The notes below the pieces were generated by a model that searched no databases, had not been told where the DNA came from, and was given only the letters and a program-made list of their open reading frames with translations. DNA of 64,000 nt, from assembly GCF_055900595.2 (NCBI RefSeq), contig NZ_CM148325.1; one strand, written 5' to 3'. Below are positions 60,968-61,308 of the stretch, in pieces (position 1 is the first letter of the stretch; each line of letters begins with the position of its first letter). Made by a program: the position numbers and the translations under genes.

Positions 60968-61136
60968 TGGCCTTTAATGCGTAACACTATAGCCCCTTGT
61001 ATTTTTCTTTGAAAGTTATCCTTCAATAATATCGACAATTCGAAAAGGAAATCATGGGCCAGAAATCGCAACGAAAATAGCTTAATGCATTGAAAAATAG
61101 ATGAATTAATTCATATTTATGCAGAGGTGTTATTGG

Positions 61137-61262
61137 TTTCACTTGCAAAGTGAAAAACAAATTAAGTTATTTTTTGTAAGTTATTTTGATGATATTCGAC
61201 ATGTATCACGCTTTTTACCGCTTTTGCTGTGCTAGTTTGCTTTCAAAATGAAAGTGAAGATT
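61137..61262. promoter_or_regulatory. Candidate operator sites: perfect palindrome TTTCACTTgcaAAGTGAAA (61137..61155), palindrome CTTTCAaaaTGAAAG (61240..61254) and repeated AAAGTGAA(A/G) (61147..61155, 61251..61259)
   Basis: Inverted/direct repeats in the A/T-rich divergent region between the DeoR regulator and the aldolase gene, 50-170 bp upstream of the aldolase start. Confidence 0.45.
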
Positions 61263-61308
61263 CTCTTTCTTCATTTTGTAAGGTGAACGACAAATATCAG
61301 GAGCTGCG

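Follow-up and report, generated by a model that had tools for sequence, protein, structure and literature searches.

The region examined is the 341-bp spacer at positions 60968..61308 of a 64,000-nucleotide stretch of Escherichia coli DNA (i.e. the window; contig NZ_CM148325.1 of RefSeq assembly GCF_055900595.2). This spacer is the divergent control region of tagRK and tagYABCDE in the E. coli D-tagatose island, which is located between yhdT and accC. The gene order is yhdT, a kinase and a DeoR-family regulator, followed on the divergent side by an aldolase, an ATP-binding cassette (ABC) transporter, a kinase and an epimerase, and then by accC. The regulator gene, tagR (60137..60967, minus strand), encodes a 276-residue DeoR/GlpR-family repressor that is annotated in RefSeq as a DeoR/GlpR regulator and takes its name from Park et al. 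2025 (PMC12226905). The top NCBIfam matches of TagR are all DeoR-family models, the best being AgaR with 105.6 bits, which is below the 260-bit cutoff. Precomputed Pfam domains of close TagR homologues comprise the DeoR-type N-terminal helix-turn-helix (PF08220) and the DeoR C-terminal sensor (PF00455). Co-transcribed with tagR is a sugar kinase gene, tagK (59170..60180, minus strand), whose product scored 346.6 bits with the TagKinase model, below the 420-bit cutoff. On the opposite side, tagY (61309..62163, plus strand) encodes a class II tagatose-bisphosphate aldolase (TIGR01858, 472.7 bits, above the 443.55-bit cutoff) and heads tagYABCDE; genes for a periplasmic sugar-binding protein and the remainder of the ABC transporter lie downstream.

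The tag region exhibited 99.9% identity to E. coli chromosomes and the cluster was found in 1422 of 5426 complete E. coli genomes. The D-tagatose cluster of E. coli was described by Ha et al. 2022 (PMC9720028) and is typical of the B2 phylogroup (PMC12226905, PMC9720028), whilst regulation of the 341-bp tagR-tagY spacer was studied in E. coli Nissle 1917 by Park et al. 2025 (PMC12226905). The spacer has a GC content of 32.8% (49.8% for the whole window), in agreement with a preliminary description of this DNA as an A/T-rich control region of a DeoR-family repressor gene. It aligns end to end with the 341-bp spacer of Nissle (L036:9338-9678) and represents a distinct allele with ~93–96% identity to most E. 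coli spacers.

Differential RNA sequencing by Park et al. placed the transcription start sites of tagY and tagR 64 and 11 nt upstream of the respective genes (PMC12226905), corresponding to positions 61245 and ~60978 of the window. The same authors predicted two promoters (i.e. Ptag and Preg), one CRP site and two TagR operators, tagO1 (CTTTCAAAATGAAAGTAAA) and, on the opposite strand, tagO2 (CTTACAAAATGAAGAAAGA); their reporters exhibited repression by excess TagR, induction by tagatose and catabolite repression (PMC12226905). Ptag (61212..61238, plus strand) is located 7–33 bp upstream of the tagY start site (PMC12226905) and consists of a -35 element TTTTTA (TTTTTG in Nissle) and a -10 element TAGTTT (61233..61238). 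The CRP site predicted in PMC12226905 (61195..61210, plus strand; TTCGA-N6-TCACG) is centred at about -42.5 from the tagY start and is class II-positioned. Preg was located on the minus strand by a consensus scan (60986..61013), with a -35 element TTCAAA (61013..61008), a 16-bp spacer and a -10 element TATAGT (60991..60986). The tagO1 site of the window (CTTTCAAAATGAAAGTGAA; 61240..61258, plus strand) matches the published operator at 18 of 19 positions, overlaps the tagY start site and extends from -5 to +14 of Ptag (-5 to +10 for its 15-mer core). The tagO2 site (61264..61282, minus strand; 15-mer at 61268..61282) matches the published CTTACAAAATGAAGAAAGA at 19 of 19 positions and lies in the 5′ untranslated region (UTR) of tagY at +20 to +38 (15-mer at +24 to +38).

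Two inverted repeats in the spacer had been proposed in the preliminary description to act as paired DeoR operators that share a half-site, AAAGTGAA, about 10 helical turns apart. Both repeats exist as described. Palindrome 1 (TTTCACTT-gca-AAGTGAAA, 61137..61155) is a perfect 8-3-8 repeat and palindrome 2 (CTTTCA-aaa-TGAAAG, 61240..61254) is a perfect 6-3-6 repeat. The octamer AAAGTGAA was found at 61147..61154 and 61251..61258, one base shorter than the ranges originally assigned to it, and these copies are 104 bp apart. A further TTTGAAAG was present at 61008..61015, slightly to the right of the 61000..61010 first given. The likelihood of such features arising by chance was assessed using dinucleotide shuffles of the 341-bp spacer. 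Of 5000 shuffles, 14.6% contained a palindrome whose arms were 8 bp or longer and no more than 12 bp apart, and 87% contained a repeated 8-mer, whilst AAAGTGAA occurred 10 times in the 64-kb window as compared to 3.2 expected, mostly far from the tag spacer. These frequencies indicate that the palindromes and the octamer alone are not beyond chance. As no feature is unusual on its own, any functional claim must rest on context and comparison. On these grounds the two palindromes differ, palindrome 2 being strongly conserved and palindrome 1 not. The published operator matches the site of palindrome 2 at 18 of 19 positions, so palindrome 2 is tagO1 and was already known as a predicted TagR operator (PMC12226905).

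Conservation of the spacer was examined with a set of 34 loci encoding TagR relatives, which form two groups. The ABC-type orthologues have regulators with 52–92% identity and derive from E. coli E69, Superficieibacter, two Enterobacter, three Trabulsiella, Serratia, Budvicia and others. The second subfamily has regulators with ~40% identity and a regulator and kinase that diverge from an aldolase; a fructose-family phosphotransferase system (PTS), a 1-phosphofructokinase-like kinase and a GatZ-like subunit replace the ABC transporter in these PTS-type loci. Between the two subfamilies, the N-terminal DNA-binding domain of the regulator is highly conserved whilst the C-terminal domains are only ~30% identical. 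In 25 of 27 sequences (i.e. the window and 26 related loci, including 16 of the PTS type), a tagO1 box (CTTWCAAAAYGAARG, with 0–2 mismatches) was detected between -57 and -100 relative to the aldolase ATG. Among the ABC-type orthologues, the tagO1 block was identical at 13–15 of 15 positions in eight of nine (10/15 in Serratia) and the tagO2 block at 13–14 of 15 positions in eight of nine (8/15 in Budvicia). ABC-type loci retain the TCACG half of the CRP site, and PTS-type loci have TGTGC-N6-TCACA at the matching place. The Preg -10 element was identical in eight of nine orthologous loci (5/6 in Budvicia), with an adjacent CTTTGAAAGTTAT block at 10–13 of 13 in eight. The segment 61040..61135 is variable or deleted (0–59 of 96 positions identical in nine orthologous loci). 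Being published, placed over the tagY start and conserved across both regulator subfamilies, palindrome 2 is, on comparative grounds, the best operator candidate in the spacer.

A 15-mer position weight matrix (PWM) was built only from the tagO1 sites of non-E. coli loci and was then iterated to 21 bp with E. coli still excluded. The three top sites of the window for the 15-mer PWM were tagO1 (23.6 bits), tagO2 (17.8 bits) and a distal box (13.0 bits) further upstream of tagY. The 21-bp consensus, TAACTTTCAAAATGAAAGTTA, is a 9-3-9 palindrome (TAACTTTCA-AAA-TGAAAGTTA), and an inverted repeat of this form would constitute the TagR recognition site. With the 21-bp PWM, exactly five separated sites were identified in the window: tagO1 (25.1 bits), a mid box (15.3 bits), tagO2 (13.4 bits), the distal box (11.9 bits) and a Preg box (10.6 bits). 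Apart from a score of 8.0 bits for the distal site read on the other strand, no further score was positive, the next being -2.5 bits. The mid box (TAACTTACAAAAAATAACTTA; 61163..61183, minus strand) is a candidate operator upstream of the CRP site. Its core at 61173..61187 (TTTTGTAAGTTATTT) was identical at 11–14 of 15 positions in all nine ABC-type orthologues, and an invariant ATAACTTTCATTTTTAAA occupies the matching place in PTS-type loci. The Preg box (TAACTTTCAAAGAAAAATACA; 60998..61018, minus strand) contains the TTTGAAAG motif, lies over the tagR -35 element and is a candidate autoregulatory TagR site; this block was identical at 13–15 of 15 positions in seven loci. Neither tagO2 nor the mid box, which is strongly conserved, had been noticed in the preliminary description, and the mid, distal and Preg boxes are not mentioned in the text of Park et al. 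(PMC12226905).

The mid block also contains a direct repeat of TAAGTTATTTT with a 14-bp period (61163..61173 and 61177..61187), reading as ATAACTTA twice on the minus strand, and the start of this repeat, ATAACTTWCA, recurs in the Preg box. Between tagO1 and tagO2 there is a 6-7-6 inverted repeat (TGAAGA-ttctctt-TCTTCA, 61255..61273) that extends to a 10-bp hairpin in the RNA of the tagY 5′ UTR (61251..61277) and probably arises from tagO1 and tagO2 facing each other. An RNA element was considered and rejected; Rfam matches were nowhere near the gathering score, and the fold of the whole leader (z = -0.15) was no better than those of shuffles. Palindrome 1 is not transcribed, as it lies upstream of both mapped start sites.

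Searches for further members of a TagR regulon covered ~150 kb of E. coli DNA (i.e. the window and loci L001, L036 and L042), and all matches outside the tag spacer were intragenic. Only six matches of at least 13 bits occurred in the 64-kb window, four of them in the tag spacer. The best tagO-like match outside the spacer was CTGTCAAAACGAAGC (53954..53968, minus strand; 15.3 bits with the 15-mer PWM) inside yhdJ; both strain Z0117EC0005 (L001) and Nissle (L036) carry this match as well. The remaining intragenic matches scored 13.5 bits (17222..17236) and, with the 21-mer PWM, 8.1 bits (in L042). These intragenic matches are probably due to chance. A search with the tagO consensus allowing three mismatches gave 15 matches as compared to 11.5 expected and was uninformative at that stringency.

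The Nissle 1917 tag region (PMC12226905, PMC9720028) is the same locus as that in the window, with the same spacer length of 341 bp, promoters, CRP site and tagO2 and with tagO1 alike at 18 of 19 positions. Only tagO1 and tagO2 are named for Nissle; the present analysis adds three putative boxes (mid, distal and Preg) and a 21-bp consensus. A second comparison is provided by the E. coli aga system. AgaR is 31% identical to TagR and has a near-identical recognition helix (VSGVTIRGDL as compared to VSTVTIRNDL), and multiple boxes surround a CRP-dependent promoter at both the aga and the tag locus (Park et al. 2025, PMC12226905). The kbaZ-agaR spacer holds CTTTCGTTTTG, whose core, CTTTCRTTTTG, is common with the tagO half-site. 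The aga boxes, in contrast to the inverted repeat of tagO, continue as direct repeats (TTTCGTTTTGTTTC). An assignment of the tagO sites to the aga type was rejected, since the best score of the 21-bp tagO PWM in the kbaZ-agaR spacer was -0.6 bits and only the core is shared; TagR was likewise rejected as an AgaR equivalog on its 105.6-bit score and 31% identity. With TagR below the AgaR cutoff and no tagO box in the aga spacer, TagR appears to work like AgaR without being a member of the AgaR regulon.

The PTS-type cluster resembles the Klebsiella oxytoca-type D-tagatose cluster reported by Shakeri-Garakani et al. 2004. It shares with the ABC-type cluster the divergent layout, a tagO box (at -57 to -67), the five-box layout, the place of the CRP site and the DNA-binding domain of the regulator, and differs in having a PTS instead of an ABC transporter and in the C-terminal domain of the regulator (~30% identity), which suggests that the PTS-type regulator has a different effector. 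The boxes are spaced by 24, 74 and 28 bp in ABC-type loci and by ~32, 73 and 32 bp in PTS-type loci. The PTS-type cluster with this tagO motif, box layout and CRP position is represented by loci L017-L031, L033 and L034 (e.g. L026, from Klebsiella oxytoca). Klebsiella spallanzanii SB6411 holds both cluster types (L010 and L028), and cross-talk between ABC-type and PTS-type clusters is possible in genomes with both.

We consider it likely that TagR is a DeoR-family repressor of the tag promoter that acts through a control region of five boxes. All five PWM-supported boxes overlap or flank the regulated promoter, as is the case for multi-box operators of the DeoR/GlpR family. Without inducer, TagR bound to tagO1 and tagO2 would block RNA polymerase or initiation. 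Upstream of the CRP site, cooperativity is probably added by the mid box (-79 to -65) and by the distal box (-103 to -89), which is the weaker of the two; with these boxes, the CRP site and the promoter may be enclosed in a loop of ~74 to 126 bp. The mid box is 74 bp, or ~7.0 helical turns, from tagO1. Tagatose or a phosphorylated derivative would release TagR, whereupon CRP-cyclic AMP would activate Ptag. Sugar phosphates serve as effectors for many DeoR-family proteins, and the divergence of the C-terminal domains between the two subfamilies would be in keeping with distinct phospho-tagatose effectors. Park et al. assumed D-tagatose to be the inducer, and reported that expression of tagRK changes modestly, by two-fold (PMC12226905); a mild autorepression by TagR at the Preg box, which spans -37 to -23 of the tagR promoter, would fit this two-fold change. 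We infer TagR binding at every box, the looping, the autorepression and the identity of the inducer.

Several points weigh against this five-box model. The published model is itself described by its authors as a working hypothesis (PMC12226905). Because the training sites of the PWMs occupy homologous positions in related loci, shared ancestry inflates the support for the mid, distal and Preg boxes; conservation of the Preg box is, moreover, inseparable from conservation of the -35 element. The distal box is missing in Trabulsiella and in Enterobacter BIGb0383 and weak in E69 and Enterobacter ENT03, and is thus dispensable at best. The distal site also matches the box in three overlapping registers, as is typical of low-complexity A/T-rich DNA, and lies 98 bp from tagO1, i.e. 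9.3 helical turns (not the ~10 of the preliminary description) and out of phase.

The distal box (CTTGCAAAGTGAAAA; 61142..61156, plus strand; 21-mer at 61139..61159) is located within palindrome 1 and is a candidate auxiliary operator that is weak and lineage-variable. The register of the box is shifted by 3 bp relative to the palindrome (centres at 61149 and 61146, respectively). Palindrome 1 has the symmetry TTTCA-N9-TGAAA as compared to TTTCA-N3-TGAAA for tagO and therefore its 8-3-8 symmetry is most likely an incidental feature of typical E. coli. Palindrome 1 was rejected as a tagO site of the same symmetry, as a centre-to-centre alignment with the tagO consensus gave no match. It was also rejected as a CRP site, since it reads TCAC-N7-GTGA, with half-sites inverse to those of TGTGA-N6-TCACA, and the predicted CRP site is at 61195..61210. 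Palindrome 1 is unmentioned in the text of Park et al. (PMC12226905) and its sequence is identical in Nissle.

It is possible, and we put this forward tentatively, that the ABC-type and PTS-type TagR repressors share a conserved array of four or five boxes, in which one pair upstream and another at the start site and in the 5′ UTR flank the CRP site and a further box covers the promoter of the regulator gene. Such an array would repress by looping the CRP site and promoter in a short stretch of DNA, with the distal box as a functional, lineage-variable member. A contending explanation, which we regard as a serious one though short of probable, is that palindrome 1 is a chance inverted repeat without a role in fast-evolving A/T-rich DNA and that control is exerted by tagO1 and tagO2, perhaps with the mid box. 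The shuffles, 14.6% of which yielded an equal or better palindrome, are consistent with this explanation, as is the location of palindrome 1 on the border of the spacer's most variable segment. So is its distribution: palindrome 1 is broken in E69, where it reads TTTCGTTTATAAAGTAAAA, is non-palindromic in every other genus, and is deleted in three Trabulsiella loci and Enterobacter BIGb0383 (four of nine orthologues), which keep every other box. Against a chance origin, the embedded box scored 13.0 bits on a PWM derived from other genera, a level that 1% of shuffled versions of the 272 bp preceding tagO1 attain (P = 0.01). At the homologous position, Superficieibacter has a 19.9-bit box (CTTTCAAAATGAAAA) but lacks the left palindrome arm, and a 9-bit box is present in Enterobacter ENT03; in nine of 16 PTS-type loci, a box of 7–12 bits precedes tagO1 by a constant ~105 bp.

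The pairing envisaged in the preliminary description, in which TagR bridges palindromes 1 and 2 across ~10 turns through a shared AAAGTGAA half-site, is very unlikely. Both palindromes and both octamers exist, 104 bp apart, and looping between separated operators is known for E. coli DeoR. Repeated 8-mers are, however, the rule among the shuffles, there are eight other copies of AAAGTGAA in the window, and the spacing of the half-sites differs between the two palindromes (N9 and N3). G61256, within the second copy, is an A in E. coli Nissle, A20 and E69, where this copy reads AAAGTAAA. In the conserved register, the counterpart of the distal AAAGTGAAA is AAAATGAAA of tagO1 (61245..61253) and not 61251..61258. 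With palindrome 1 lost outside typical E. coli and G61256 polymorphic, AAAGTGAA is not a conserved unit. The initial observation is real without being statistically special, and its interpretation as DeoR operators is right in kind, published earlier for palindrome 2 and only loosely correct for palindrome 1 and AAAGTGAA. Similarly improbable is that palindrome 1 is the site of a different protein (i.e. another regulator or a nucleoid protein on a horizontally acquired A/T-rich spacer): the arms are intact in seven of seven typical E. coli alleles examined, including Nissle, whilst neighbouring bases vary (one allele is altered in the spacer of the palindrome), and the symmetry is unlike that of tagO, but palindrome 1 is not a CRP site by sequence, is not conserved outside typical E. 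coli, sits where E. coli diversity is too low to show selection and has a right-hand part already explained by the tagO PWM.

For use in the probiotic E. coli Nissle 1917, the tag promoter is under development as a tagatose-inducible expression system (PMC12226905). A full operator set would help to trim or tune this promoter, to predict leakiness in natural variants without the distal region and to design an electrophoretic mobility shift or footprint experiment. Biologically, this is an ordinary local repressor-operator system and the finding is largely ordinary, a modest extension of a known region. The additions are a predicted 21-bp palindromic consensus, conserved candidate boxes at the mid and Preg positions, a weak putative distal box and a layout that appears common to PTS-type clusters.

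Minor features of the locus were also observed. A perfect 14-bp palindrome, ATGAATTAATTCAT, occupies 61101..61114 and in Nissle and several other E. coli reads ATGAATATATTCAT (central TA to AT), which is still perfect; it is absent or deleted in E69 and other genera. This palindrome overlaps a promoter-like TTGAAA-16-CATATT on the plus strand (61090..61117), for which no start site is reported in PMC12226905. The longest tagK open reading frame (336 residues, from 60180) has a 44-nt overlap with the 3′ end of tagR, and RefSeq places the start at ~60105, giving a 311-residue product. The longer N-terminus is covered by tblastn matches in several genera; the same stretch encodes TagR in another frame. 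Two of the 1422 genome matches are located on plasmids and the others are chromosomal, and one record, H45, has only the first 80 bp of the spacer. In a chicken isolate, E. coli Z1323CEC0015 (NZ_CP148423.1; L039), tagR is annotated as a frameshifted pseudogene whilst the spacer and tagY are intact, and this strain may represent a natural constitutive variant.

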